NCBI GenBank assembly: GCA_034436375.1
Contig: DAOTVS010000329.1
Coordinates: 1-19,651 of the forward strand
Length of the DNA: 19,651 nt
Direction: 5' to 3'
Source: Anaerolineae bacterium
GTDB taxonomy: Bacteria > Chloroflexota > Anaerolineae > SpSt-313
Shown here: one piece after another, positions 3,201 to 19,258 of the stretch
Numbering within the stretch: the first letter of the stretch is position 1
Layout: each line of letters opens with the position of its first letter
The notes under the pieces: generated by a model
What the model saw: only the letters and a program-made list of their open reading frames with translations
Database searches by the model: none
Told to the model about the DNA's origin: nothing
Made by a program: the position numbers and the translations under genes

Positions 3201-3767
3201 GCCGAGGAACCAGGTGAGGCACAGGGCCAGGAGCGGCGGCAGATCATGCCATTGCAGGGTGGTTGGAGCCCAGCGCCCGCCGAGCAGACCATAGACCTGC
3301 CCGGCGGCCAGCAACACCAGGGCGTTTAGGCCGCCGCTGAAGAGGGCCAGCCGCAGCCGTCTGCCGCCCGAAAAGCTGGACGGGCTGGCCTCATGATCCG
3401 GGTGATGGTCGGGCGAAGGGTTTGCCTGGCTTGGCGCGGGGCGCAGGCGTATCGCCATGAAAATGAGCCCGCCCAGGGTCGCCACCCAGGCCCCACCCGA
3501 GGGGCCCATCACCAGCAGGGCGGCGAGCACGGCCACGCCTGCCAGGCTGTGGGTGACCAGATGCGCGACCCGGAATCCCTCGACCTTGAGCCCTATGGCC
3601 AGGATGAGGAAAAAGAGCGCCGGGGCCACCTCCAACCGCTGCTGCGTGGCCATGGTCGAGGCGATGAGAATGCCCCAACCAACCAGGCCGATGCCCGCCT
3701 CATAGGCCAGGGTGGCCCCTGGTCGGGTTGGTGCAGACGCCGGCGAGAGAGTCAGTCGCTTGCCCAT
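231..3767 (-). CDS. Membrane-anchored multi-GAF PP2C-family serine phosphatase (RsbU/SpoIIE-like). It has 4 N-terminal TM helices, 4 GAF-like domains each ending in an ANQxAMAIQNA-type helix, and a C-terminal PP2C/SpoIIE domain (SGDFYDF...DVSDKG...FVTLFYGILD...LYTDGVTE).
   Basis: ORF 231..3959 (minus strand) in the ORF track. C-terminal motifs typical of the SpoIIE/PP2C phosphatase family. Repeated GAF-like segments. The ORF's upstream 64 codons overlap the STAS gene. Start is placed at ATG 3767 (MGKRLTL...), which precedes the first TM helix and overlaps the STAS stop by 16 nt. No strong SD sequence, so the start is uncertain. Confidence 0.8.
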   Translation of the reverse strand: MGKRLTLSPASAPTRPGATLAYEAGIGLVGWGILIASTMATQQRLEVAPALFFLILAIGLKVEGFRVAHLVTHSLAGVAVLAALLVMGPSGGAWVATLGGLIFMAIRLRPAPSQANPSPDHHPDHEASPSSFSGGRRLRLALFSGGLNALVLLAAGQVYGLLGGRWAPTTLQWHDLPPLLALCLTWFLGDHLGWSLRIALAEGSAGLERFLRAIQVYSLAVELLPLPLAAVLAIAYRILDPLALGLLGLFLLAVGELLRRLNMTLNHARERVADLTTLNAFSRALLASKLDVQALCQLLQAHTTAVLGPQRFWLGLFDARRQHIEPAIATGGASAPHPQLIEWVKKGPAPLLVRDAERDSLPFAPSAGDHRFRAALWVPLQAAEEMIGLLTVESGRPNAFSSDDLRTVATFANQTAMAIQNARSYQAAQRRARQVATVGEVSRQVVAILGMDQLFSRVVTLIREAFGYYHVQIFTIDPASQEIRFQASTSPLLNEQGVRVAPGQGLIGWVGQTGEAIVINEVHGEPRYRLIEGLEATRSEAVVPLKVDERLVGILDVQSDRPDTFGSEDIYVLQTLADQVAIAIEDNRIYAAQQEQTWVSTALLQVAESLANLTGLDEVLDAANRLVPLLVGADRSFIFLRDEDTGELCVLRAHGLGNPSREHLLGRPLREVAPNLAEALEAGSAPLDLTAETEAGREAQAALGLAAGVAIPLRAGGETIGALATGYREPQPLSGGRRAVLGGIANQAAMAIQNAHLYIAQREEAWVSTALLQVAELAGRTKDLDEILAGVVRLTAMLTGVDRSCIFLWDGERRRYVPSHAYGLSEPLRKRMAGLSLSVGDFPLLDRVREAGAPLAAEGADLYELVPPALAEAFSIRSALGLPLRSQDEVQGIMVVDYVGQPHHFSQRRIALLSGLTNQAGIAIENVRLYRESLERERMAQELRVARRIQATFLPESCPQIPGWSIAALSQPAREVSGDFYDFFPLAAQRLGLVIADVSDKGVPAALFMALSRNVMRAIALEGRSPADTLGRVNDLLRADSRSGMFVTLFYGILDTQTGELALASAGHNPAYLRRRDGRLERLVCRGIALGVIERPAFQELQVRLEPGDALALYTDGVTESFDPEEREFGEEGLQAALRSATAGDANGLMDAIGRAVRRFVRGAPQADDLTMVVVVRR

Positions 3768-4129
3768 GTGTGAGCCGACCCACCAGGCGGCGCCGCAAAG
3801 GATGATACTGCCTGCTGGCAAGAATCCCACAGCTCGAAAACCTGGTCGAACCCCGCCAGTGCGAAAATCTGCCGCACCCTTGGCGCCAATGCGCAGAGCT
3901 TGAGGTCGCCCTTCTGCTCGCGCGCCTGCCGGGCCCCCACCAACAGGGCGCGCAGACAACTGCTCGAGACATAGGTCACTGCGGCCAGGTCGACGACCAG
4001 CCGAGTCTGCCCCCCGGCGAGGGCCTGCCGCAGCAGTTCCTCCAGGCGCGGTGAGATGGCGGCGTCAATGCGTCCCTCTGCTGCGATGACCAGGACCCCA
4101 TGGCGTTCGATCTGCCTGAGCTCGCTCAT
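3752..4129 (-). CDS. STAS-domain anti-sigma-factor antagonist (SpoIIAA/RsbV-like)
   Basis: MSELRQIERHGVLVIAAEGRIDA...LVVDLAAVTYVSSSCLRALL...GFDQVFEL is a typical STAS fold signature with the conserved serine region. ATG at 4129 shares one nucleotide with the TGA of the upstream kinase gene (TGATG), suggesting translational coupling. Confidence 0.8.
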   Translation of the reverse strand: MSELRQIERHGVLVIAAEGRIDAAISPRLEELLRQALAGGQTRLVVDLAAVTYVSSSCLRALLVGARQAREQKGDLKLCALAPRVRQIFALAGFDQVFELWDSCQQAVSSFAAPPGGSAHTWASD

Positions 4130-4545
4130 CAATGCCTCCTCTTGTACAGGCGGAGCTCGTTGCCCTCGGGGCCACACCGAAAGACGAGGCGGTCGGTCAG
4201 CTTGCGCATAAAGTAGATGCCCAGGCCTCCGACCTGGCGTTCTTCCAGGCTGCATGTTGTATCGGGCTGAGGCGCCTCGTTAGGGTCAAAGGGGCGGCCC
4301 CGGTCGCGCAGAATCACGACCAGATCATCGCCCTCGATCTCGCAGCGGATGAGGATCTCGCCCGCTACGCCCGGTCCATAGGCATGCTGGATGATGTTGG
4401 TGCAGGCTTCATCGACCGCCATCTGCAGCTCGAATGCCCGCTGCTCATCGAGCCCCAGCGCGGCGGCGGCAGCCGTCACAAACTCGGCGATCTGCTCCAG
4501 GTTGGCCGGGTCGCTCGCGACCGCCAGTTCCAGGGGTTGCGCCAT
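4129..4545 (-). CDS. Anti-sigma regulatory factor, serine-protein kinase (RsbW/SpoIIAB-like GHKL ATPase)
   Basis: 138-aa ORF (minus strand) in the ORF track. Motifs ...AVDEACTNIIQHAY... and ...GGLGIYFMRKLTD... are characteristic of HATPase_c_2 anti-sigma kinases. Located between two STAS genes. Confidence 0.8.
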   Translation of the reverse strand: MAQPLELAVASDPANLEQIAEFVTAAAAALGLDEQRAFELQMAVDEACTNIIQHAYGPGVAGEILIRCEIEGDDLVVILRDRGRPFDPNEAPQPDTTCSLEERQVGGLGIYFMRKLTDRLVFRCGPEGNELRLYKRRH

Positions 4546-4560
4546 GTCGTGTCCCTTGCG

Positions 4561-4698
4561 GGCTATCAGCTATCGGTTGTCGGCTCTGGCCTCCATTCAC
4601 GCGACACTTGATGGTTGCGGGGGCCGCTATCGGCAGAGTTGGGCCAGCAAGCATCATCGCCGATGGAATAAGCTGATAGCTGATAGCCGATAGCTAGA
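4561..4698. repeat. Structured intergenic element. A 14-bp inverted repeat (GGCTATCAGCTATC at 4561-4574 / GATAGCTGATAGCC) flanks ~100 nt. It carries 6-7 copies of the hexamer GATAGC/GCTATC (tandem GCTGATAGCTGATAGCCGATAGCTAG at 4672-4698).
   Basis: Read directly from sequence. Lies between the STAS-2 stop (4694) and the kinase start (4545) inside a minus-strand operon. Confidence 0.6.
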
Positions 4699-5029
4699 AA
4701 CTACCTACCGCATCAACCGTCGTATCATAGCCTGCAAAGAGGACATCGAGCCCCGCCAGGCTCAGCACACCCTGGATGCGCTCGGGCACATTGGCCAGGC
4801 GCACGTCGCCACGGTTCCAGCGGCGCGACTCTTTCAGCGCGGCCACCAGCACGCGCAGGCCCGCGCTGGAAAGGTATTCCAGCCCCGTCATGTCGACGAC
4901 GATGTGGAAACGCCCCTGGTTCAGGATTCCCTGCAGCGCGTCTTCCAGGCGCGGGGCGCTGGCGCTATCGACACGTCCGCTGACCTCGACGACATCTACG
5001 CGTTTGAGCTGGCGAGTCTTGACTTCCAT
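4694..5029 (-). CDS. Second STAS-domain anti-sigma-factor antagonist
   Basis: MEVKTRQLKRVDVVEVSGRVDSASAPRLEDAL...HIVVDMTGLEYLSSAGLRVLV...GLDVLF shows the STAS fold. Start ATG 5029 is preceded by GAGGAGG. The ORF-track ORF (4694..5137) extends further upstream without an SD sequence. Confidence 0.75.
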   Translation of the reverse strand: MEVKTRQLKRVDVVEVSGRVDSASAPRLEDALQGILNQGRFHIVVDMTGLEYLSSAGLRVLVAALKESRRWNRGDVRLANVPERIQGVLSLAGLDVLFAGYDTTVDAVGSF

Positions 5030-5078
5030 AGGGCCTCCTCTGCCTCCAGGCAGAAAACTGTGAACCATAAACCGTAAT

Positions 5079-5112
5079 GCGTGATCCGTAATGCACGGAT
5101 TACGCATCACGC
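5079..5112. promoter_or_regulatory. 34-bp near-perfect palindrome GCGTGATcCGTAAT-gcacgg-ATTACGcATCACGC. A direct repeat of CCGTAATGC (5072 and 5087) precedes it and a small hairpin CTGCCT-CC-AGGCAG (5041-5054) follows.
   Basis: Read directly. It overlaps the stop codon of the ligase gene (5100-5102) and lies 50-80 bp upstream of the STAS-2 start. Locally AT-richer than the surroundings. Confidence 0.5.
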
Positions 5113-6635
5113 ACTTTCCGTGCGCCTTCCGCCGCACCTTCGACCAGCTTGGCCGTGACGATGCCCAGACCGATGATGAGCCAGAAGAGCGTCAGCATGT
5201 GCGAGAAACTGAAGAGCGTATGATCGAACACGCCGCCGGCCAGCCCCGCCGTGATCGACACCGCCGGCCCGATGATCCAGGGGGCCAGGGTGGGGTCGGC
5301 GCGGCCATGGCGCCAGGCGATCCAGGTGATGATGTAGAAGAGCGCCAGGGTGACCAGGTATGCGGCCAGGCCGATGACGCCCGTCTCTTCCGTAATCATC
5401 AGGTAGAGGTTCGATACGCCCACGTAGAGGTCAATATCGGGCGCATCTACAAAGCCGACCCCCAGCCAGGGGTAACGCTGGATGAGTATGAGTGCATCCT
5501 TGTACTCTCCAAAGCGCATCTGCGTGGCCCGGTCCTGCCCCTGCACGCCCTGCTCAAAGTGAGCCACATAGGCCTGTGTTTGGGGTAAGAGCAGGAGCAG
5601 CAGCGCCACCAGCGCAAGGGCCAGGAGCGCCTTGCGATAGCGCCCGATCAGCGACAGGATGGCAATGACTCCCACTGCCAGGCCCGCCAGCGATCCGCGT
5701 GAATAGGTCAGGAAGAGACACACCCCCGCCGAGGCGGCGGCTGCCAGCAGCCAGAGGCGCGGTATGAATGGCCGCCTCTCAAAGAGGTGCGGCGTTGCCA
5801 ACCCGAGGGTCAACGCCATGAGGGCGCCCAGGACGTTAGGGTCTACCGAGGTCGAGATGGCCCGCTGCGGCAGGCTCGGATCATCCTCGATATAGCGCAG
5901 TACGTCGGGCCCAGACGGGTAGCGAAAGATGCCCAGCGCCGAAAGCAGGCGGGTGCTCGTGGCGGGCGGCAGAAAGTAGAGCACAATGCCGATTGCCCCA
6001 GCCAACGCGCCGCCCAGGATCAGCCAGGTCGTCAGCTGCTGCACCTGGCGGCGTGTGCGCACCAGGTTCAGCACGGCAAAGAAAATCATAATGCCCAGGG
6101 GAATCTCGGCGAACTGGCGGAGTGCGGTAGCTGTCAATTGGGCATGGCCCAGGCCTGCGGCAAAGGCGCCCACCGTCGCCAGCGCGAAAATGGCCACAAA
6201 GGCCGAAATAGGCGAGGAAACCCAGCGCCCCTGCCGCCCGGTGGCGATCCGCGCTGCCCACACCAGGAACAGCATCCCCAGGGCCAGGTTCAGAAAGGTC
6301 GGCGAAAAGCCCACATTCAGCGGCAGAGTGCCAAAGGGCAGCAGATAGATGACCGCCACCGTGACCATGAGCGTGAAATCGGGGCTGCGCAGCATCAAAA
6401 GCGCCGCCGCCACGCCCACAACCAGCGCAGCCGCATAAAGCGGCGTCGCGAACGCCACCAGGGCCCCGGCCAGGGCGCCGGCAACCAGGCAAATGGCCAG
6501 CGTTACCAACAGAGACCCGATATCGCGACGCGCCAATACACGCTGCAGGACCAAAACGAGCGGCAAACCATTCACTCCTATTGTGAGGGGCAATACGCTG
6601 CCGGAAACACGCCCCGTGTCACGAAAGTGTAGCAC
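5100..6635 (-). CDS. O-antigen ligase / Wzy_C-family polytopic membrane protein
   Basis: 511-aa ORF with ~12 predicted TM helices. Motif ...LTYSRGSLAGLAVG... and a large periplasmic loop are typical of the O-antigen ligase/polymerase (RfaL/Wzy_C) family. The ORF track starts at a GTG without SD, so the true start may be internal. Confidence 0.65.
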   Translation of the reverse strand: MLHFRDTGRVSGSVLPLTIGVNGLPLVLVLQRVLARRDIGSLLVTLAICLVAGALAGALVAFATPLYAAALVVGVAAALLMLRSPDFTLMVTVAVIYLLPFGTLPLNVGFSPTFLNLALGMLFLVWAARIATGRQGRWVSSPISAFVAIFALATVGAFAAGLGHAQLTATALRQFAEIPLGIMIFFAVLNLVRTRRQVQQLTTWLILGGALAGAIGIVLYFLPPATSTRLLSALGIFRYPSGPDVLRYIEDDPSLPQRAISTSVDPNVLGALMALTLGLATPHLFERRPFIPRLWLLAAAASAGVCLFLTYSRGSLAGLAVGVIAILSLIGRYRKALLALALVALLLLLLPQTQAYVAHFEQGVQGQDRATQMRFGEYKDALILIQRYPWLGVGFVDAPDIDLYVGVSNLYLMITEETGVIGLAAYLVTLALFYIITWIAWRHGRADPTLAPWIIGPAVSITAGLAGGVFDHTLFSFSHMLTLFWLIIGLGIVTAKLVEGAAEGARKVRDA

Positions 6636-10688: not shown

Positions 10689-12932
10689 ATGGTTGCTAGG
10701 GAAAATGTGGCCGTCTCGGAGGCGCAGTCGGACTTGCGCTGGATGCTGGGGCAGTTGCGGGAACAGGCCGTTATGGCGGCCCTGGCTGCTCTCTATGTCG
10801 CTGGGATTCTCATCCTGGTGGCTGCGCCGCGGGCGACCACGATGGCGCAGGGTGTGTTGACGGGGTTCCTGTCTCTTATTGTGGGGGCAGCGGTATGGCT
10901 GGCACGCCGCAATCACTCTGTCTCGGCTTGGTTGATGGTGGGCGGCTGTGTGCTCGTAGTGCTCCTGACCGCGGCAGTCGAGCGGGTACCCGCGGCCGTC
11001 GTGCTGCTCATCCTGCCGGCAGGTCTGGCCGTGTTGGCGGTGGGCATTGCGGGCGGCCTCGTGACAGCGCTTCTTTGCAGTGTCCTCCTGCTCTTCCTGC
11101 CGGCGACGTCTCTGCCGGTCGGCGGGGACTTGCGCTTGGTGACCGGGCTCGCCGTCTGGGCCGTGGTGGGCATGATCTCGCTGGCGTTGCGCCTGTTGCT
11201 CACGGCCCTGGAGTGGTCCTGGGCCAGCTACCGCGAGAGCCACGGCCTGCTCGAACGTGCCCGAGACACCCACGTGCAACTCAAACAGGCACTTGCCGAT
11301 CTGACCGACGCCAACCTGCAGCTCACGCGCTTGAACCGGCTGACCCAAGCGCTCCGTCAGGCCGCCGAGGATGCGCGGCATGCCTCCGAGACTTTTGTGG
11401 CCAACGTATCTCACGAGTTGCGCACGCCCCTGAACATGATCATTGGTTTCAGCGAGATGATTCTGGATGCGCCGACTGCCTATGGCTGCAACTTGCCCGC
11501 GTCCTTGCTCGCCGATCTTGAGATTGTGCTGCGCAATAGCCAACACCTCTCCGGCTTGATCGACGACGTATTGGACCTGAGCCAGATCGAGGCCGGCCAG
11601 GTGGCACTGACCCGGGAGCGGGTAGTGCTGGCTGAGGTTGTGGATGCGGCGCTGGTGGCCGTGCGCCCTCTGTTCGAATCCAAAGGCCTGTACCTGGAGG
11701 CGGAGATTGACCCCGACCTGACCGCCTTTTGCGACCGTACGCGCATCCGTGAGGTGATCCTCAACCTGCTTTCCAATGCCGGGCGCTTTACAGAGCGCGG
11801 GGGCGCCCGGTTGCGCGCCTGGCGCGAGGGGGGTGATGCTGTGGTCAGCGTGACTGACTCTGGACCGGGCATCGCCGATGAGGACAAGGATAAGGTGTTC
11901 CGCCCCTTTCAGCAACTCGATGGCTCGCTGCGGCGGCGCTATGGCGGCTCGGGCCTGGGCCTCTCTATCAGCAGGAGCTTTGTGGAGATGCATGGCGGCA
12001 AAATGGGCTTCGAGAGTGAGCTCAGCGTCGGCACAACCTTTTACTTCCGCTTGCCGATAGAGCCGCCGACGCCAATCGTTGGGCCGCCCACACGCTGGCT
12101 AAGCGCTGAGTGGCACTATGAGGAGCGGACGCGACGCCCGCTGCCTGCGGCGCTGGCGGTGCGCCCCCGTTTTGTGCTGGTGGAAACGGGCACCTCGCTG
12201 CGGCGCCTGCTTGCCCGCTACTGGGATGAGGTCGAGCTGGTGCCGGCCGGCAGCCTTGAAGAGGGGCTGCACGAGTTGGCACGTGTGCCGGGGCAGGGGC
12301 TTTTGGTTAACGATACACGCGTAGGCGAGGTGTTGCAGCGCCTCAGCGCCTCCGACCTGCCTTACGGCACGCCGATTATGGTCTGCTCGGTGCCTGGCCT
12401 GGCTGAGGCAGCGCATGCCTTGGGGGCACTGCAATACCTGGTCAAGCCGGTGGCGCGTGAAGACTTGCTGGGGGCGCTGGACGACCTTTCTTTGGTAGGA
12501 AAGACCGTACTGATCGTGGATGATGAGCCCGATGCCCAGAGACTTTTCTGGCGGATGCTCTCTACGTCGGGGCGTGGCTACCGGGTTCTCACTGCCGGCA
12601 ATGGCCGTGAAGCCCTGTCGATCCTGCGCGGTGACCAGCCCGATGTGGTATTGCTGGATCTGGTCATGCCCGATATGGACGGTTTCCAATTGTTGGCGAC
12701 AATGCGCAATGATCCGGCCCTTTGCGCCATCCCGACGGTAGTCATCTCCGCACAAGATCCGACGGGTCAGCCTATCATCACTAACACCTTGACTGTTACG
12801 CGCCGCGGGGGGCTTTCGGCGCCGCAGCTCCTGGCCTGCTTGCAGGGGCTGACTCAGATCCTCTCGACGGGCGGGCCATCTCGCGGTCCAGAGCCGCCAG
12901 CAGCGCCGAGCGACTCACCGGCTTGCGTATGA
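10689..12932 (+). CDS. Hybrid sensor histidine kinase / response regulator. Contains ~5 N-terminal TM helices, a coiled coil, HisKA (H-box VSHELRTPLN), HATPase_c, a degenerate receiver-like domain, and a C-terminal receiver domain (VLIVDDEPD...VVLLDLVMPDMDG).
   Basis: 747-aa ORF. ATG 10689 preceded by GAGGAG. Domain motifs read from the translation. Confidence 0.85.
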   Translation: MVARENVAVSEAQSDLRWMLGQLREQAVMAALAALYVAGILILVAAPRATTMAQGVLTGFLSLIVGAAVWLARRNHSVSAWLMVGGCVLVVLLTAAVERVPAAVVLLILPAGLAVLAVGIAGGLVTALLCSVLLLFLPATSLPVGGDLRLVTGLAVWAVVGMISLALRLLLTALEWSWASYRESHGLLERARDTHVQLKQALADLTDANLQLTRLNRLTQALRQAAEDARHASETFVANVSHELRTPLNMIIGFSEMILDAPTAYGCNLPASLLADLEIVLRNSQHLSGLIDDVLDLSQIEAGQVALTRERVVLAEVVDAALVAVRPLFESKGLYLEAEIDPDLTAFCDRTRIREVILNLLSNAGRFTERGGARLRAWREGGDAVVSVTDSGPGIADEDKDKVFRPFQQLDGSLRRRYGGSGLGLSISRSFVEMHGGKMGFESELSVGTTFYFRLPIEPPTPIVGPPTRWLSAEWHYEERTRRPLPAALAVRPRFVLVETGTSLRRLLARYWDEVELVPAGSLEEGLHELARVPGQGLLVNDTRVGEVLQRLSASDLPYGTPIMVCSVPGLAEAAHALGALQYLVKPVAREDLLGALDDLSLVGKTVLIVDDEPDAQRLFWRMLSTSGRGYRVLTAGNGREALSILRGDQPDVVLLDLVMPDMDGFQLLATMRNDPALCAIPTVVISAQDPTGQPIITNTLTVTRRGGLSAPQLLACLQGLTQILSTGGPSRGPEPPAAPSDSPACV

Positions 12933-14118
12933 AAGCGGCCGCCCCCAGCGATAGCGCTAGCTGCTCCTGTGGCAGGATCGTGCAGACGATCACGGGCACT
13001 CCCGTCGTCTGCGGATGCTCGCGCAGCCTACCCAGCAACTCCCAGCCGTCTATGCCGGGCAGCATCACATCGAGCACGATGATCCGGGGAGCGAGTTCGC
13101 GGGCCAGCGCAAGCGCCTGTGCGGGGTCGCGAGCGCCCATGAACGGGTAGCGGGTGCCGGCCAGGTAGCGCTGGAAGAGGTGCAAGGTATCCGCATTGTC
13201 ATCGATCACCAGCACCGCTGCCTGCTCGGCGATGGGCAACGCCAGGATGGCCTTGAAGGGCTGGGATCCGGCTTCATCGGGCACGATCGACAGGACTCCT
13301 CCTGAGAGCCCTACCAGCTGGCGGGCCATCTCCAGGTTGTCGAGCACGTCGCCTGTAGCCGGCCCCATGTCGCCGTGATGGGAGGTAGGGGTAATGCGAA
13401 TCAGCGCCTGATGCTCTTGCTCCTCGATCTCGATGCGGATCGTGCCGCCGGGCACGGCGCGAATAGCCGCGGTGAGGATGTTCAGGCAGGCCTGGCGCAG
13501 TGATGCTACCTGCACAGCTACGCGAGGCAGACCCTGCGGCAGCGCACAGTCGATTCGCACCTGCAAGGCACGGGTGAGTGGTATCACGATCTGGAGCAGC
13601 CCATCGATCAACCCCTGTACGTCCGCAGCTTCGTTGGGCAGGGTCTTTTCCAGCCATTGCAATTCTTCCTCACGGCTGGGGATGGCCTCCGCGTCGCTAG
13701 GCTCATCGCTTGCGCCATTCTCGCTCTCTTCACCCAACAGGGCATCCAGGTGCAGATCATAGTGCACGGCCAAGTAATCGGCCAGCACGCGCAAGGCCAG
13801 GCTCTCCTGGCGGCGCATCTGGCGCAGGCTCAGCCCCAGGGTTGTCGCTACCTCTTGTTGGCTGAACTGATCGACGTAGCGGTGAGTGAGTGTGCGGTAG
13901 GAGCGCCATTCGCTCGATTGCAGCGAGGCATCGGCATCCGGCTTGAGTGCCTCGATGGCTTCGATCAACACCTTGCGCAGCCTGGATGGGCTTTCCTGGG
14001 GCTGCAGGCGGAGCAGTGGCCACAGCGGGCTGGCACGAAGGGCTGCCGGATCGTAGAGGTGCAGCATTGTCCTCCGTAGCGCCCGCAGAAAGGAAACTTC
14101 GGGGGGATTCTCATTCAT
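12796..14118 (-). CDS. Atypical regulator. N-terminal sigma-70-region-4-like HTH (FSQQEVATTLGLSLRQMRRQESLALRVL), a central degenerate GHKL/HATPase-like domain (N-box LNILTAAIRA, no H-box), and a C-terminal receiver domain (VLVIDDNADT...IIVLDVMLPGIDG...FIRKP).
   Basis: Part of ORF 12796..14505 (minus strand). Start assigned to ATG 14118 (MNENPP...), with GGAGAGG ~14 nt upstream. An alternative start at 14268 is possible. Confidence 0.6.
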   Translation of the reverse strand: MNENPPEVSFLRALRRTMLHLYDPAALRASPLWPLLRLQPQESPSRLRKVLIEAIEALKPDADASLQSSEWRSYRTLTHRYVDQFSQQEVATTLGLSLRQMRRQESLALRVLADYLAVHYDLHLDALLGEESENGASDEPSDAEAIPSREEELQWLEKTLPNEAADVQGLIDGLLQIVIPLTRALQVRIDCALPQGLPRVAVQVASLRQACLNILTAAIRAVPGGTIRIEIEEQEHQALIRITPTSHHGDMGPATGDVLDNLEMARQLVGLSGGVLSIVPDEAGSQPFKAILALPIAEQAAVLVIDDNADTLHLFQRYLAGTRYPFMGARDPAQALALARELAPRIIVLDVMLPGIDGWELLGRLREHPQTTGVPVIVCTILPQEQLALSLGAAAFIRKPVSRSALLAALDREMARPSRGSESAPASRPGAAAPKAPRGA

Positions 14119-14185
14119 CGTGACCACATGGCCTCTCCGTGGCCTCTTTTTGGCCTGCACTTGCAGACAGGTACCGATTGGAGTG

Positions 14186-14210
14186 TTATACTGTACAGCA
14201 TACTGTACCA
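14186..14210. promoter_or_regulatory. Operator-like element in the divergent promoter region: direct repeat ATACTGTAC x2 (14188-14196, 14200-14208) with embedded perfect palindrome CTGTACAG (14191-14198). It overlaps a -10-like TATACT.
   Basis: Read directly. It lies between the divergent regulator (start 14118) and the ABC operon (start 14303). Confidence 0.45.
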
Positions 14211-14302
14211 CTTTGAGCGGTAGCTGGCAAGACGCCTCAGAGTGCGCATTGTACGGGCAAAGGGCCATTGGGCCCGGTTTCTCGAAAGGAGATGGATATC
14301 CG

Positions 14303-15781
14303 ATGGAACCCAAGAAGCTATCGCGGCGTGATTTCCTCCGTTGGAGTGCTCTGCTGGCCGGGGTAGCCACCCTGGCAGCCTGTGCACCAGCCAAGCCGAC
14401 AGAGTTGCCCACGGTGGCCGCGAGCGCGGCGAGCGCCACCACCGCCCCCGAAGCGACGGCTGCCTCGGCCGAGCCAACGGGGACCCAGGCTGCCGAGCCC
14501 ACCACAGCCCCGGCGACCGAGGCACCCTCTTTGGCTGGCGAGATCGAGTATTTCTCCTATGATCTGGGGCCGGCCAACAAATCGCGCGAGGAGATTGCCA
14601 ATGCCTTCCAGGCGGCCAACCCCGGCAGCAAAGTCAAGCTCACGGTCCTGCCCTATGGCGATAACTGGAACAAACTGGCCGCACTCATGGCTGCCGGCAC
14701 CCCGCCTGATGTGATCTATGGCGATTTCTCCCTCCTCAAGTATGCCCTGGCCGGCCAGCTGCTCGATCTGACGGAGCAGTTCAATGCCGATCCGGTGCTG
14801 AGCAAGCCCGACCTCTTCACCATGGATATGCGTGATCCCATCCAGGCCAAGTTTGGCACATCGCATCTCTATAATCTCGTCCTGGGCACCTGGGTCCCTG
14901 TGTTGTATTACAACCGCGACATCTTCGATGCTGCCAGCCAGTCCTATCCAGACGACAAGTGGACTTGGGAGGATCTGCGGGCCGTCGCCAAGAAGCTGAC
15001 GGATCCAGCCAAGCAGCAGTGGGGTGTGCAGTTCGGTACCACCCTCGACACCGTCGGCTGGCTCTGGTGGCAGCACCAACCCAAGGATTTCTGGGCAATC
15101 CCCCAGATCTTCCCCGAAAAGACCGATTTCAACAACGAGGTTGGGCTGGACGTCTTCTCCTTCTGGTATAACCTGGGCTCACAGGACAAGTCTGCTGTGC
15201 CGTTTTCTGAGATGGGGTCTTTCCAAGCCTACGGCGCTGCCTTTGGCGCCGGCAAAGCGGCTATGGTTATTGGCGGCGATTGGGATGCCGGCTGGGGGTA
15301 CCGCGAGCTGCCCTTCAAGTGGGGCGTGACCTACCTGCCCACCGTCAAGAAAGACTACCGGCCAGCCCTCAACTGCATGGTGGCCACCTCGACCATTGCG
15401 GCCGCCACCAAGCAGCCGGCACTGGCCTGGCAGTTCGCCCGCTTTATGTCGGCGTCGACCGAAGGCCAGACCCTGATCGGTGAGGGCGCCTACGAGACCC
15501 CCGTGCTCAAGGACGTCGCCCATTCCGACGCCGTTCTCAAGCCAAGTTGGGGGGCACCGGGATATGACGTGCGCGTCAAGGCGGCGGAGTTGCCGGGGCC
15601 TATGTACTGCCCCTATCCGCTGGACATGGATCTGTGGGAGTTCCCCTCCAAGCACTTCGATCCGACCGTGCAAAAGCTCTCGACAGGCGAGATGAAGCCC
15701 GAAGAGGCTGTGGCCTATCTCGACAAAGAAGGCACCCCCTACTTTGCCGAGATGACGAAGAACATGCCGCCCATCAAGTGA
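14303..15781 (+). CDS. ABC transporter substrate-binding lipoprotein (extracellular solute-binding family 1 / CUT1-type) with a Tat/lipoprotein signal (RRDFLRWSALLAGVATLAAC)
   Basis: ATG 14303 preceded by AAGGAG (11 nt upstream). Signal peptide with twin-arginine motif and lipobox Cys. A Thr/Ala/Pro-rich linker follows. The remaining ~440 aa are typical of family-1 SBPs. Confidence 0.85.
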   Translation: MEPKKLSRRDFLRWSALLAGVATLAACAPAKPTELPTVAASAASATTAPEATAASAEPTGTQAAEPTTAPATEAPSLAGEIEYFSYDLGPANKSREEIANAFQAANPGSKVKLTVLPYGDNWNKLAALMAAGTPPDVIYGDFSLLKYALAGQLLDLTEQFNADPVLSKPDLFTMDMRDPIQAKFGTSHLYNLVLGTWVPVLYYNRDIFDAASQSYPDDKWTWEDLRAVAKKLTDPAKQQWGVQFGTTLDTVGWLWWQHQPKDFWAIPQIFPEKTDFNNEVGLDVFSFWYNLGSQDKSAVPFSEMGSFQAYGAAFGAGKAAMVIGGDWDAGWGYRELPFKWGVTYLPTVKKDYRPALNCMVATSTIAAATKQPALAWQFARFMSASTEGQTLIGEGAYETPVLKDVAHSDAVLKPSWGAPGYDVRVKAAELPGPMYCPYPLDMDLWEFPSKHFDPTVQKLSTGEMKPEEAVAYLDKEGTPYFAEMTKNMPPIK

Positions 15782-15789
15782 TCGCCTAT

Positions 15790-15824
15790 GGTGGGAGGTG
15801 GGGCGGGCTGCCCCATCTCCCACC
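15790..15824 (+). terminator. GC-rich stem-loop GGTGGGAG-GTGGGGC-GGGC-TGCCCCAT-CTCCCACC immediately 3' of the SBP gene
   Basis: Inverted repeat read directly. No T-tract. The position (between the SBP and permease genes) is typical of intra-operon attenuators that set SBP:permease stoichiometry. Confidence 0.3.
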
Positions 15825-15909
15825 ACCACCACCGGCGGCCGGCCGGCAGGGATGCGCCTGGCCCGTGGCGACGCCCTCTGGCCGGTTGCTGGAGCTCGAG
15901 GAGGCAAGT

Positions 15910-16860
15910 GTGCAACTCGACCGCGCTCTCAAGCCGGCGGGCCCGCGGGCCAACGCCCATCGCTTTCGCCTGTCTCTGCAGCGTCGTGAAGCGATCGCCT
16001 GCGCGTTGTTCATTGCGCCAGCCGTGCTGGGTTTCCTGGTATTCTCGCTCTTTCCTCTCCTGACCTCCGCCGCTCTGAGTCTGACCGACTACCACCTGGC
16101 GGGGTGGCCCCGCTATGTGGGACTGGCCAACTATGCGACGCTGTTCGGGGACGACCTGTGGTGGCAGGCCGTGCGCGTCACGGGCATCTATGCCCTCTGT
16201 GTCGTGCCCCTCTGGCTCATCAACTCCCTCGCTCTGGCGCTGCTGATGAACCAGAACCTCCGCGGCATGAACGTCTTTCGTACCATCTACTACCTGCCGG
16301 CGATGCTCTCGGGGGTAGCGGTCTCGATGCTGTGGATCTGGTTGCTCAGCTATCGCTACGGGCTGATCAACACCTCGCTCCGCCTGGTGGGCGTCCAGGG
16401 ACCCAACTGGGTGGGCGACAAGCGCTGGGCGCTTTTCTCCATCATCCTGATGAGCCAGTGGAGTGTTGGCTGGTACCTGCCTACCTGGCTGGGGGCGCTG
16501 CAGAATATCCCGACTGAGCTCTACGAGGCCGCCTCCATCGACGGCGGCGGGTGGTGGGCTCGCATCCGCTATATCACCCTGCCCATGCTCAGCGCGGTGA
16601 TCTTTTACAACCTGATCATGAACATCATCTGGGCCACTCAGCTTTTCACCGAAGTGTTCATGGTGACGGGAGGAGGTCCCCAGTTCAGCACCCTCAGCTA
16701 TATGCTCTACCTCTACAACAATGCCTTTGGTTACTCCAAGATGGGCGTAGCTTCGGCCATGAGTTGGCTGTTGTTCCTCGCCGTCCTCCTGCTGACGATC
16801 GCCGTGTTCCGGTCGAGCCCGGCGTGGGTCTACTATGAGGCGGAAAGGAGGCGCGCCTGA
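15910..16860 (+). CDS. ABC transporter permease (MalF/UgpA-like, 6 TM, with EAA-loop region ...YEAASIDGGGWWARIRYITLP...)
   Basis: In-frame GTG 15910 preceded by GAGGAGG (6-nt spacer). The ORF-track ORF 15634..16860 has no Met before this. Stop TGA overlaps the next gene's ATG (TGATG). Confidence 0.75.
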   Translation: MQLDRALKPAGPRANAHRFRLSLQRREAIACALFIAPAVLGFLVFSLFPLLTSAALSLTDYHLAGWPRYVGLANYATLFGDDLWWQAVRVTGIYALCVVPLWLINSLALALLMNQNLRGMNVFRTIYYLPAMLSGVAVSMLWIWLLSYRYGLINTSLRLVGVQGPNWVGDKRWALFSIILMSQWSVGWYLPTWLGALQNIPTELYEAASIDGGGWWARIRYITLPMLSAVIFYNLIMNIIWATQLFTEVFMVTGGGPQFSTLSYMLYLYNNAFGYSKMGVASAMSWLLFLAVLLLTIAVFRSSPAWVYYEAERRRA

Positions 16861-17744
16861 TGAGCACTCCCACGCGGGCTACCCTGCCGCGCCAGCCTTT
16901 CTGGAGCCGGCGCATGCGCCGGACGCTCTTGAAGGTCCTGACCTACTTGGCACTGGTCACGGGTAGCCTCCTCTTCCTGTTCCCGCTGTACTGGCAGGTC
17001 AGCACCTCGCTCAAGACCGCGCAGGATACTGTGCGCTTCCCGCCAGTGTGGTTTCCCGTGCCTCTACAGTGGGGGAACTATCCTGAGCTGTTGCACCGTT
17101 TCCCCTTTGCCCTCTATATGCGCAACTCGGTGTTCATTAGCGCCCTGGTCATCCTGGGTACGCTGCTCTCCAGTTCGTTGGCAGCCTATGGCTTCGCCCG
17201 CCTGCGCATGCCGGGGCGCGATATCATCTTTATGGTCCTGCTCTCTACCCTTATGCTGCCGGGCGCCGTGCTGCTGATCCCACAGTTCGTCATGTTCCAG
17301 AGCCTGCACTGGGTCAACACCTACAACCCGCTCATCGTGCCGGCTTTCTTCGGGAATCCGTTCTCCATCTTTCTAATGCGCCAGTTCTTCATGGGCGTTC
17401 CGCACGATCTGGAAGATGCGGCACGCATCGATGGCGCCGGCTACCTGCGTACTTACGGTCAGATCGTTCTACCCCTGGCGCGCCCGGCTCTGCTGGCCGT
17501 GGCGATCTATACCTTCCTGAGCACCTGGAACGACTTTCTCGGCCCTCTGATCTACCTGAGCGACGAGCAAAAGTACACAGTGGCCGTAGCCCTGCGTTAC
17601 CTTCAAGGCAGTGTGCGCACCCGACCAGAGAACCACCTGCTCATGGCGGCGGCGACGCTTTCCATTATCCCATGCGTCCTGGTCTTCTTCTTTGCCCAAA
17701 GGCAATTCATCCAGGGTACAGTGATCTCGGGGGTGAAAGGGTAG
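16860..17744 (+). CDS. ABC transporter permease (MalG/UgpE-like; EAA motif ...DLEDAARIDGAGYLRTYGQIVLPLARPAL...)
   Basis: 294-aa ORF. One-nucleotide overlap with the upstream permease gene. Typical CUT1 inner-membrane component. Confidence 0.85.
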   Translation: MSTPTRATLPRQPFWSRRMRRTLLKVLTYLALVTGSLLFLFPLYWQVSTSLKTAQDTVRFPPVWFPVPLQWGNYPELLHRFPFALYMRNSVFISALVILGTLLSSSLAAYGFARLRMPGRDIIFMVLLSTLMLPGAVLLIPQFVMFQSLHWVNTYNPLIVPAFFGNPFSIFLMRQFFMGVPHDLEDAARIDGAGYLRTYGQIVLPLARPALLAVAIYTFLSTWNDFLGPLIYLSDEQKYTVAVALRYLQGSVRTRPENHLLMAAATLSIIPCVLVFFFAQRQFIQGTVISGVKG

Positions 17745-17803: not shown

Positions 17804-19258
17804 ATGACCCATAGCAGAAGCGAACCTTTCTACATGCGTATCTTGAGCGATGCGGAGATTGAGCGCATCTACGACGGCGCGGTGCACGTGCTGTTGCAGA
17901 CTGGCTTTCGCGTGCAGCACCGGGGGCTGCTGGAGCGCCTCGAAAAGCGCGGCGCCCGGGTGGACTATGCGCGCGAGGTCTTTTGGCCGACACCGGAGAT
18001 GATCCGCGAAGTGGAAGCCAGCGCGCGCCGTGGGGCAGGGGAGCCTGCACCCGAGCCTGTGCTGCGCCGGCCCCTGCCGCAGGGCCAACGCGTGGGCTAT
18101 AACGGCACGCTCTACTATGACTGGACAGAGGGCATCCAGCGCCCGGCGACCCTGCAGGACGTGCGCGATATGGTCAAGGTCTGCCACGCCCTGCCCGAGG
18201 TGACGGCGCTGGGACCCTGCATGACGGCCCAGGATGTGCCCTCGCCGGTCGAGCCCCTCGTGAGCTTTGCTGAGGCCATCAAGCTCTCGGATCGGGCAAC
18301 CGTCGGGGTGGAGTTGATCCTGCCGGAGCAACTCCCCTACCTGGAGGAGCTCTTTACCATCGCCCGCGGCGAGCAGGTCTACTACCGTTCCGACGGCTAT
18401 GCCCTCAACCGCTTCACCGTCGATGCCCGAGCTGCCGGCTGCCTGATGGCGATTTGGGAGCGGCGTGGCCTGGAAAGCTGGGCGGTGAGCAGTTGCCCGG
18501 TGGCCGGCGCGAGCGCTCCGGTCACGATTGCCGGGTCCATTGTGGTCGCTGTCGCTGAAACGTTGGGCGCTTGGTGCGCGCCCTGGGCCCTGAGCGAGGA
18601 CTGCCACCTCGGCGCCATCCCTTGCTCGGGTATCATGGATATGCGCACTACGCGCGTTCTCTTTAGCACACCGGAGGCCATTCTGATCGATGTGGGCCTC
18701 TACCAGGTGCTGGACCGTGTGCTTGGTGTCAAGACAGGCATGCTTACCGACTATACCGACGCCAAGGTGCCTGGCCTGCAGGCCATGAACGACAAGGTCT
18801 TCAAGGGTCTGGCCTACAACTGGCTCACCAGCCGGCCTGACCGGCAGCACCGGGGCATGCTCGAAGCGGGCAAAGCCTTCTCCCCGACCCAACTCATGAT
18901 CGATTTCGAGCTTAACCGGGAGTTGGCCCAACTGGCGCGCGGTGTGGAGGTGAACGACGATACCCTCGCCCTCGATGAGATTGCCGCCATCGGTCTTGAC
19001 CATGCACGCTCGTACCTGGACGAGGAACATACCTTCCGCCATTTCCGGTCGGAGCTCTGGTCGCCCGAATTGATGGACCGCACCTGTTGGGACACATCTA
19101 CGGAGGAGCGGCGCAAGGAACAGGCCCTGCTGCACCAGGCCGAGGAAAAGTGGCGAGCCGCACTTGCTCGCTATGAGCAACCCGCGGTTCCAGCGGAGAA
19201 GATCCGCGCCGCCGAGGCGGTGGTGGCGCGGGCAAAGCGGGCCATGGGAGTCTGCTAG
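17804..19258 (+). CDS. MttB-superfamily (trimethylamine methyltransferase-like, non-pyrrolysine) methyltransferase
   Basis: 484-aa uninterrupted ORF. The N-terminus (MRILSDAEIERIYDGAVHVLLQTGFRVQHRGLLERLEKRGARVDY), overall length and the C-terminal helical region match MttB-family proteins. No in-frame TAG. Preceded by an unusually AT-rich leader. Confidence 0.75.
   Translation: MTHSRSEPFYMRILSDAEIERIYDGAVHVLLQTGFRVQHRGLLERLEKRGARVDYAREVFWPTPEMIREVEASARRGAGEPAPEPVLRRPLPQGQRVGYNGTLYYDWTEGIQRPATLQDVRDMVKVCHALPEVTALGPCMTAQDVPSPVEPLVSFAEAIKLSDRATVGVELILPEQLPYLEELFTIARGEQVYYRSDGYALNRFTVDARAAGCLMAIWERRGLESWAVSSCPVAGASAPVTIAGSIVVAVAETLGAWCAPWALSEDCHLGAIPCSGIMDMRTTRVLFSTPEAILIDVGLYQVLDRVLGVKTGMLTDYTDAKVPGLQAMNDKVFKGLAYNWLTSRPDRQHRGMLEAGKAFSPTQLMIDFELNRELAQLARGVEVNDDTLALDEIAAIGLDHARSYLDEEHTFRHFRSELWSPELMDRTCWDTSTEERRKEQALLHQAEEKWRAALARYEQPAVPAEKIRAAEAVVARAKRAMGVC

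Follow-up and report, generated by a model that had tools for sequence, protein, structure and literature searches.

Among the described systems closest to the regulator at this locus is PhyR, the anti-anti-sigma factor of the alphaproteobacterial general stress response, which has sigma-2-like and sigma-4-like halves with no kinase-like insert and binds the anti-sigma factor NepR, not DNA. The regulator has a region-4-like part only, together with a new 60-residue extension and an inserted domain resembling a degenerate histidine-kinase catalytic domain (pseudo-CA), and the evidence gathered on it points to the reading of DNA. Its conserved neighbours are a histidine kinase and an ABC operon, in place of the NepR and EcfG neighbours of PhyR-type proteins. 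Compared with response regulators of the NarL/FixJ (LuxR/GerE-type) and OmpR/PhoB classes, the order of its domains is reversed, with the output domain first and the receiver last. It also carries an extra pseudo-kinase domain of ~150 residues and is associated with an array of 3-4 units; neither Pfam GerE nor Trans_reg_C matches it.

The inserted domain has its own relatives. ChpT, DivL and RetS likewise have a Bergerat-fold domain that derives from histidine kinases; theirs has lost ATP binding or catalysis and serves as a protein-interaction module. These proteins retain DHp for dimerisation and lack a DNA-binding domain, whereas in the regulator a helix-turn-helix (HTH) takes the place of DHp helix 1 and its histidine. 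RsbW and SpoIIAB share the GHKL fold and an association with sigma-type domains, but they belong to the HATPase_c_2 subfamily and are active kinases. At the level of genome organization, transporter-linked sugar-sensing systems, such as the hybrid two-component systems at Bacteroides PULs and the BceRS-type kinases, for which an ABC transporter serves in sensing, follow the same logic, in which many paralogous sensor/regulator sets lie beside their own uptake loci. This likeness is one of analogy only, as there is no sequence relationship and both the architectures and the phyla differ. The best reading of the data presented here is that the regulator belongs to a large, undescribed Chloroflexota family with a new response-regulator architecture.

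The regulator, its family and its neighbours

The window, by which we mean the whole 19,651-nt stretch of Anaerolineae DNA analysed, contains the regulator gene between a kinase gene and a divergent transporter operon:

10689..12932, plus strand: cognate hybrid histidine kinase, with a multi-pass TM region, HisKA, HATPase_c, a pseudo-receiver and a receiver
12796..14118, minus strand: regulator gene (440 aa), with a putative N-terminal DNA-binding domain, a pseudo-kinase (CA-like) domain and a C-terminal receiver
14303..15781, plus strand: solute-binding protein (SBP_bac_1, TAT signal), divergent from the regulator and first gene of the ABC operon
15634..17744, plus strand: two ABC permease genes (BPD_transp_1), with an uncertain start for the upstream one
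17804..19258, plus strand: MttB-superfamily methyltransferase gene, downstream of the permeases and syntenic in the closest loci (L001, L002)

The regulator lies in a real open reading frame (12796-14505, minus strand), in which the ATG at 14118 gives a 440-aa product. This ORF did not arise by chance, because the product has more than 120 full-length homologues, each at E<1e-113. The start at 14118 appears sensible, since the homologues are 410-450 aa long and begin at an equivalent position; a 490-aa version of the identical protein in public data (P0001) is probably too long. The domains of the 440-aa product are laid out as follows:

13939..14118, minus strand: residues 1-60, a family-specific helical extension with the motif LRxALxHLYDPxxLRxSPL, packed on the HTH
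13759..13938, minus strand: residues 61-120, a sigma-70 region-4-like HTH with recognition helix S97-L-R-Q-M-R-R-Q-E105
13678..13758, minus strand: residues 121-147, a low-complexity, poorly conserved linker, predicted disordered (pLDDT 33-48; 14% mean identity)
13225..13677, minus strand: residues 148-298, a degenerate histidine-kinase catalytic (CA/Bergerat-fold) domain that keeps the tail of DHp helix 2
12874..13224, minus strand: residues 299-415, a receiver domain in which the phospho-acceptor set is complete (D306, D307, D350, T380, F396 and K399)

This agrees with the order of HTH, degenerate HATPase and receiver put forward in an earlier, sequence-only reading of this DNA. Within the N-terminal helical domain, the sigma-region-4-like portion is the last ~65 residues; structural relatives were sought for residues 1-60 and none were found, and sigma-70 region 2, which binds core and recognizes the -10 element, is absent from the protein. 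Pfam Response_reg matches residues 302-410 at E=1.4e-18, above its curated cutoff. D306, D307, D350, T/S380, F396 and K399, the last within a K399-P400 pair, are kept across the family, and the receiver is apparently functional. With a mean pairwise identity of 48% in the family, the HTH region ranks with the better conserved stretches of the protein, and the pseudo-CA, at 31%, is its least conserved folded domain.

The sequence-only reading had regarded this architecture as unusual, and a survey of its spread instead returned a family of thousands. A profile of the N-terminal domain recovered 2,485 clusters (50% identity) at E<=1e-10, essentially all from Chloroflexota; in each of the best 150 the domain is N-terminal and the protein ~410-450 aa long. 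A word-indexed search with the same profile gave 31 short fragments, all of the same family, and no other architectures. In species-representative genomes we found 303 loci, nearly all titled Chloroflexota, with up to six or more paralogues per genome. Database labels of family members say only "response regulator" or "CheY-like", and literature searches on the architecture and on sugar two-component systems of Anaerolineae turned up nothing relevant in the collection searched.

The genomic setting is conserved as well. In the window the hybrid kinase converges on the regulator, as had been pointed out, and their 3' ends overlap by 137 nt. Across 80 loci an orthologous hybrid histidine kinase nearly always converges on the regulator and overlaps its 3' end, and this kinase is found (600-925 bits) in essentially all loci that extend far enough to include it; the overlap is 68 nt in 34 of 78 loci. 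The multi-pass TM region of the kinase lacks a Pfam-detectable sensor domain and, though the kinase is hybrid, no Hpt protein was seen. Across paralogues, identity is 74% in the kinase DHp and 59% in the regulator's receiver. On the other side, the gene divergent from the regulator encodes an SBP_bac_1 protein or the first permease of a CUT1-type ABC transporter operon in nearly all loci. The earlier suggestion that the regulator governs the divergent ABC/MttB operon is plausible, and we infer that it probably controls the neighbouring ABC operon.

The 11-nt array and the recognition helix

The element conserved across the family, overlooked in the sequence-only reading, is a run of 3-4 direct repeats that have a period of 11 nt and a core of GGnCA and lie just upstream of the regulator gene. 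In the window it lies beside two predicted promoters:

14127..14159, minus strand: tandem array of three 11-nt units, TGCAGGCCAAA AAGAGGCCACG GAGAGGCCATG (minus-strand reading), the proposed operator
14164..14192, plus strand: promoter toward the ABC operon predicted by consensus scan only, with -35 CAGACA, a 17-nt spacer and a TG-extended -10 TATACT
14202..14230, minus strand: regulator promoter predicted by consensus match only, with -35 TTGCCA, a 17-nt spacer and a TG-extended -10 TACAGT

The GGCCA cores of the window array occupy 14155-14151, 14144-14140 and 14133-14129. The array pattern matches the window once, against 0.04 matches expected by chance, and the array PWM scores 29.1 bits, against a shuffled maximum of ~19.8. 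A PWM match is present at the 5' end of the regulator gene in 65 of 80 loci; elsewhere, 793 kb hold only ~9 matches, most of them in front of other SBP/ABC genes (L059, L062, L079, L042, L017). Many homologous loci have clear TTGnCA-17-TATAAT promoters in the corresponding position. Relative to the predicted ABC-operon promoter the array falls at about -41 to -73, and relative to the predicted regulator promoter it falls in the 5' leader, at about +36 to +68. The regulator's own leader is the sole family-wide conserved position of the array. In many loci 200-450 nt separate the array from the start codon of the SBP gene, and where the intergenic region is long no second array was seen closer to that gene; control of the ABC operon from this site would then depend on long 5' UTRs or on action over a distance.

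The repeat at 14186-14210, proposed earlier as the binding site, coincides in a consensus scan with two overlapping divergent TG-extended -10 boxes and was rejected as an operator; the family-conserved, co-varying element is the array at 14127-14159. A metagenome scan for the array (GCGGACATNNNGCGGACATNNNNNGGACA) gave at least 120 loci, none encoding a relative of the regulator; the matches are perfect 11-nt tandem repeats in unrelated taxa and a repeated intergenic element of one low-GC genome, and they are uninformative on the regulator family.

The core bases of the array co-vary with recognition-helix residues 101 and 102. Arg102 occurs with G at core base 1. In counts that ignore kinship, core base 1 is C or T, not G, in 11 of 11 scored loci with Gln or Ala at position 102 and in none of 61 scored loci with Arg, Lys or Ser there; four further Gln102 loci, below PWM detection, also have C or T. 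Loci with Met101 have GGCC cores (8/8, again ignoring kinship). Seven of the co-variation loci were fetched later, independently, as a test of the prediction, and the pattern held in all seven. The Gln-type proteins fall into at least four similarity clusters, and their nearest neighbours include Arg-type proteins.

It is also conceivable that the array is a leader RNA or translation element, with its Shine-Dalgarno-like GGAG/ATG units acting as a ribosome standby or decoy, or that it is the site of another factor shared by these loci, while the regulator has its targets elsewhere. The array fills the 5' UTR in most loci, its last unit usually includes the start codon, the units hold GAGG/GGA and often ATG, and similar GCGGACAT 11-nt repeats occur in unrelated taxa lacking a regulator homologue. 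A co-variation with two residues of a recognition helix is, however, hard to explain in this way, and the arrays upstream of SBP genes in L059, L062, L079 and L042 point away from them with no gene start after the repeats. Moreover, the intergenic leader has no Rfam match and no significant fold. We therefore consider this explanation quite unlikely, and favour the array as an operator read by the regulator.

The kinase-type middle domain

The middle domain of the regulator is of the histidine-kinase CA type and, by its residues, catalytically dead. The single regulator sequence gives only a partial Pfam match to HATPase_c, over the N-box part (E=0.01). The family profile matches the CA domains of histidine kinases, including ZraS (2.6e-11), KinB (1.5e-7), RetS (1.7e-5), ShkA and HK853, and in hhalign it finds the CA domain of the neighbouring kinase with a probability of 82% (E=1e-5). 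The Mg-binding Asn of the N-box is replaced by Ala (A218), nearly invariant in the family, and ~17 residues of the ATP lid, spanning G1, F and G2, are deleted; the segment 'TSHHGDMGPATGD' sits within this shortened, poorly conserved lid region. HisKA does not match the regulator and no histidine is conserved across the family, so that the missing H-box was correctly noted.

The proposed origin of this domain from an anti-sigma-kinase-like ATPase is not supported: HATPase_c_2 matches none of 30 family members, and the family profile aligns to the window's own RsbW (4129-4545) with an hhalign probability of only 0.7%. These results bear on the idea that the protein works by partner switching in the manner of PhyR or RsbW. 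A sigma fragment, an anti-sigma-kinase-like ATPase and a receiver would be combined in one polypeptide, with the region-4-like domain acting as bait or being sequestered, and the RsbW/STAS proteins of the window would thereby be tied to a phosphorelay. The middle domain, however, is unlike RsbW, and the region-4-like part is present alone, without the sigma-2-like half that PhyR uses. The N-terminal domain is tethered by a linker predicted to be disordered, and its recognition helix co-varies with a DNA repeat, a relation for which a bait domain would have no use. Furthermore, the partner-switching proteins of the window (GAF-SpoIIE, two STAS proteins and RsbW; 231-5137), to which the sequence-only reading had linked the regulator, have no homologue within +/-6 kb of it in 80 loci. 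A partner-switching role is thus very improbable.

A further, very improbable reading makes the regulator mainly a phosphorelay or scaffold part: as a pseudo-kinase of the ChpT/DivL kind it would dock on the hybrid kinase and pass on or buffer phosphoryl groups, and its HTH would be vestigial. This reading can draw on weak matches of the CA-like part to HPTransfase, the ChpT C-terminal domain (E=0.09 for the window regulator; 4/30 members, best 0.0019), on the relay partner to be expected of a hybrid kinase and on the unusual conservation of receiver and DHp across paralogues, but it is opposed by the absence of DHp helix 1 and of any conserved histidine in the family, the better conservation of the HTH region than of the pseudo-CA, and the co-variation of the specificity residues with the array.

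A proposed mechanism and its implications

We think it probable, from the conserved layout and the co-variation, that the regulator is the response regulator of a three-part Chloroflexota module, made up of a hybrid kinase, the regulator and a divergent CUT1-type ABC operon, and that it reads the 11-nt array. In this mechanism the kinase would phosphorylate D350, and the phosphorylated regulator would bind the array head-to-tail along one face of the DNA. Bound there, it may block its own transcription; we propose this autorepression because the leader of its own gene holds the array. In loci where the array adjoins the ABC promoter (the window, L001/L002 and the Phototrophicaceae clade), the regulator could also activate transcription of the ABC operon from about -40 to -75. 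The dead CA is probably a relic of a kinase core comprising the tail of DHp helix 2, CA and receiver, in which the histidine-bearing helix was replaced by the HTH. Our guess for its present role is protein-protein contact, through which the regulator would oligomerise on the array or dock to its cognate kinase; mirror-tree correlations between regulator and kinase domains, computed to find the partner of the pseudo-CA, gave r of 0.4-0.7 for all pairs and no clear signal.

It is tempting to speculate further that the regulator works by sigma appropriation. Its region-4-like domain, on -35-like GGnCA repeats beside promoters that have an extended -10 alone, would replace region 4 of the housekeeping sigma factor. 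The dead CA, as the most variable folded part, would separate six or more parallel kinase/regulator pairs, whose DHp and receiver surfaces for phosphotransfer are nearly identical, by docking or ligand binding specific to each paralogue, and a code of residue 102 with base 1 and residue 101 with base 3 would insulate the paralogues at the level of DNA. We regard this extension as unlikely.

Chloroflexota, including the Anaerolineae and their relatives, are abundant in sediments, digesters and soils, and their gene regulation is almost unstudied. The present analysis defines a major regulator family of this phylum, to which a predicted operator, a proposed recognition code of two residues and a fixed pairing with a kinase and a transporter can now be assigned. 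The family appears to be a clear natural case in which a response regulator has taken over the catalytic domain of a histidine kinase as a non-catalytic module. The high identity of DHp and receiver across paralogues poses a specificity problem, namely how cross-talk is avoided. With the predicted operator and its code, it may become possible to predict, from sequence, the regulons for carbohydrate and solute uptake in uncultured Chloroflexota.

Domain composition of the regulator and its family

The regulator belongs to the two-component response regulators, and its output architecture is new. Its minus-strand ORF, which ends at 12796, is real and yields 440 aa from the ATG at 14118. A sequence-only reading had placed an HTH, a degenerate ATPase and a receiver in this one polypeptide, and domain searches agree well with that order. 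Sigma70_r4, HATPase_c and Response_reg all match in Pfam, of which only the receiver (residues 302-410, E=1.4e-18) is above threshold; it is also the only domain recognised by NCBIfam, and it retains the acceptor set D306, D307, D350, T380, F396 and K399. Below threshold, Sigma70_r4 matches residues 77-112 (18.8 bits against a cutoff of 24.1), HATPase_c matches 206-243 with its N-box portion (E=0.01), and a ChpT-type HPTransfase domain matches at E=0.09. The full-length structure model (mean pLDDT 85.7) is confident outside residues 129-147, a linker for which disorder is predicted. A near-identical public ENA protein (P0001, 490 aa; differences Y119C and P252L) is called from a start 50 codons upstream of the homologue-supported 14118, so that this call spans the repeat array and promoter region described below.

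The ATPase-like domain had been likened to an anti-sigma kinase, an origin that is not supported. Comparison shows no relation to the RsbW type, and the domain's profile instead matches histidine kinase catalytic (CA) domains in the PDB (ZraS 2.6e-11, KinB 1.5e-7, ShkA 8e-7, also RetS and HK853) and aligns with the CA domain of the convergent hybrid kinase at 82% probability. Aligned to kinase CA domains, the Mg-binding N-box Asn is Ala (A218, nearly invariant family-wide), and about 17 residues are absent across the G1, F and G2 boxes. The H-box is missing, as first read: Pfam gives no HisKA match and the family alignment no conserved His. Because the tail of DHp helix 2 is kept before the pseudo-CA domain (SREEELQWLEK, matched in the alignment by LSQIEAGQVAL of the kinase) and the receiver follows directly, the regulator resembles a DHp-CA-REC kinase core in which an HTH has taken the place of the His helix.

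More than 120 full-length relatives (E<1e-113, about 50% identity, 410-450 aa) are named, where named at all, only "response regulator" or "CheY-like". A survey of how widely the architecture occurs, suggested with the original reading, revealed a large family. A scan of a single genome for each species returned 303 loci; 80 were kept, and these are titled Chloroflexota with one exception (Anaerolineae, Caldilineae, Thermoflexales, Ktedonobacterales, Chloroflexia). Several paralogues can occur in the same genome, at least six in MAG R89_281. Against 1.84 billion representatives clustered at 50% identity, the N-domain profile matched 3,845 clusters with E<=1e-3, of which 2,485 reach E<=1e-10. 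The best 150 are either full proteins of about 410-450 aa with the domain at their N-terminal end or fragments. No paper in the literature collection searched describes the architecture.

A repeat array and the helix predicted to read it

Alignment of the DNA upstream of regulator start codons revealed three to four direct repeats with an 11-nt period, a unit consensus of A-A/G-G-M-GGACA-T-G and a GGnCA core; the ATG is usually contained in the last unit.

14159-14127, minus strand: window array, TGCAGGCCAAA AAGAGGCCACG GAGAGGCCATG (pattern and weight matrix)

The pattern matches once in the window against 0.04 expected, and the array scores 29.1 bits with the weight matrix, where the best shuffled sequences reach about 17-20 bits. 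Run over the homologous loci, 793 kb in all, the matrix places an array at the regulator gene's 5' end in 65/80 loci and matches elsewhere only about nine times. Most of these other matches precede additional SBP/ABC genes and are oriented away from them, and no gene begins behind the array. In each of L059, L062 and L079, for example, an array is found about 100 nt ahead of a second SBP paralogue. In L017, where the ABC operon adjoins the kinase, the array has relocated together with the operon. The array region has no Rfam match, and leader RNA structure is not significant (z = -0.88).

The family's recognition helix reads S97-x-R-Q/H-L/M-R-R-Q-E105, and its variants co-vary with the core bases. 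Loci with Gln at residue 102 (RQLQR) have CGnCA in place of GGnCA, and Met101 loci (RQMRR, window included) have GGCCA cores.

Core bases in seven further family members, fetched afterwards and picked for helix variants
RQLQR, P0040: CGCCA, CGCCA, GGACA
RQMQR, P0119: TGCCA, CGCCA, TGACA
RQAQR, P0107: TGACA, CGACA, CGACA
RQLAR, P0021: TGCCA, TGACA, GGACT
RQMRR or RQMKR, P0020, P0025, P0003: GGCC in 8/9 cores, one GGTCA

At least two non-G first bases occur in 11/11 Gln/Ala102 loci versus 0/61 others (Fisher 3e-13, not tree-corrected), and at least two C third bases in 8/8 Met101 loci versus 11/64 others (also not tree-corrected). Four Gln-type loci missed by the GG-biased matrix (L011, L018, L031, L065) have CG cores too. 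Gln-type proteins are spread over at least four similarity clusters, and in several of these the nearest neighbours are of Arg type, so the Arg/Gln switch probably happened more than once. This co-variation is evidence, drawn from sequence comparison, that the regulator reads the predicted operator.

Similar repeats exist outside the family, in metagenome loci recovered with the array pattern. In a low-GC (~0.45) genome (e.g. ERZ842401 NODE-17, FLNX01001708), a ~150-nt intergenic element recurs dozens of times, 250-380 nt ahead of genes of various kinds; it contains TTTTAGCGGACATGTAGCGGACATGCAGCGGACATCGTGCATACTTTG and, after it, TATAAC-like boxes. Homologues of the regulator are absent from these loci. 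Unrelated contigs (L106, L107, L113, L134, L147, L153, L163, L173) have palindromic double arrays of three to four TGTCCGC units (11-nt spacing), then TTTTAAAA, then three to four GCGGACA units, reminiscent in arrangement of plasmid/phage iteron or centromere-like sites.

Promoters and the divergent transporter operon

In the intergenic region of the window, two overlapping divergent promoters, both with TG-extended -10 boxes, are predicted from matches to the promoter consensus.

14164-14169 (-35) and 14187-14192 (-10, TATACT), plus strand: predicted ABC-operon promoter
14230-14225 (-35) and 14207-14202 (-10, TACAGT), minus strand: predicted regulator promoter

The repeat at 14186-14210 that had been proposed as the binding site coincides with these -10 boxes; the direct repeat itself is ATACTGTAC twice (14183-14210). 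Only a few bp separate the predicted transcription starts, which makes competition between the two promoters probable. The array occupies about -41 to -73 of the predicted ABC promoter and about +36 to +68 in the regulator's leader. A regulator-directed TTGnCA-17-TATAAT is evident 30-40 nt upstream of the array in many homologous loci, which makes the leader the family-wide position of the array. This conservation suggests autorepression, in which array-bound regulator would block its own transcription as a roadblock.

Control of the divergent ABC operon, also proposed originally, is plausible but less secure. In the window, in L001/L002 and in the Phototrophicaceae clade, a plausible promoter directed at the ABC operon lies right beside the array; in many other loci the array lies 200-450 nt from the SBP start codon and no second array is present. 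In L042 a promoter-plus-array segment of about 110 nt is duplicated (4340-4415 and 5880-5955) with near-identical arrays, one copy ahead of the SBP gene, the other ahead of the regulator and a URO-D-like gene; for both, the distance to the minus-strand start codon is about 350-390 nt.

The divergent neighbour is almost always an SBP or the first permease of a CUT1-type ABC transporter (SBP_bac_1 in 23/32 otherwise unlabelled neighbours). An MttB-superfamily methyltransferase gene follows the window's permeases (17804-19258, plus strand; PF06253, E=3e-45) and is syntenic in the closest loci (L001 1034-2734, L002 1042-2742), so the solute transported in the case of this paralogue may not be a sugar but a methylated amine. 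Genes beside other paralogues include GH2 and URO-D-like.

The window also encodes a complete partner-switching set (231-5137, minus strand), and as first noted it holds no sigma factor gene.

231-3959, minus strand: GAF-SpoIIE protein, 1242 aa, four GAF domains and a SpoIIE phosphatase domain
3752-4255 and 4694-5137, minus strand: STAS proteins
4129-4545, minus strand: RsbW-type kinase

The suggested tie between this set and the regulator is not supported: none of the 80 loci has a homologue of its proteins (within 6 kb of the regulator on either side), and synteny shows no relation.

The kinase partner and divergence among paralogues

The convergence of a hybrid kinase onto the regulator is a family trait, with an orthologue (600-925 bits) placed likewise in essentially every sufficiently long locus. 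In the kinase, a multi-pass membrane region in which no sensor domain is recognisable precedes HisKA, HATPase_c, a pseudo-receiver and a receiver. In the window kinase (10689-12932, plus strand) and 71 orthologues, the pseudo-receiver (~490-600) lacks the acidic pocket and has the KP motif, and the terminal receiver keeps its Asp residues; a conserved Lys at the latter's usual KP position was not seen in the alignment. A nearby Hpt gene was not seen.

The two 3' ends overlap, by 137 nt in the window (12796-12932), by exactly 68 nt in 34/78 loci, and nearly always by 2 mod 3 (L002-L080). In the 68-nt class each TGA stop is antisense to a TCA in the partner's conserved C-terminal receiver helix region, so that helix alpha-5 of the regulator and the C-terminal tail of the kinase are encoded on opposite strands of the same stretch. 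The antisense overlap is fixed and seems to date back as far as the family itself; antisense coupling and the lack of room for a terminator would be candidate roles.

Mean pairwise identity across loci
Kinase DHp: 74%
Kinase CA: 64%
Regulator REC: 59%
Regulator sigma-4-like part: 48%
Regulator pseudo-CA: 31%
Kinase TM region: 23%

Paralogues of different loci show little difference in the surfaces that usually set phosphotransfer specificity (the DHp figure is such a comparison); judged by identity, the diversifying parts are the pseudo-CA and the membrane sensor. This pattern fits the idea that the pseudo-CA may make paralogue-specific protein contacts or bind a ligand. A mirror-tree search for its partner gave no informative signal.

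The probable broad function of the regulator, control of an uptake locus, is ordinary. Its family is large and undescribed, and is now equipped with an operator and a recognition code, both predicted.
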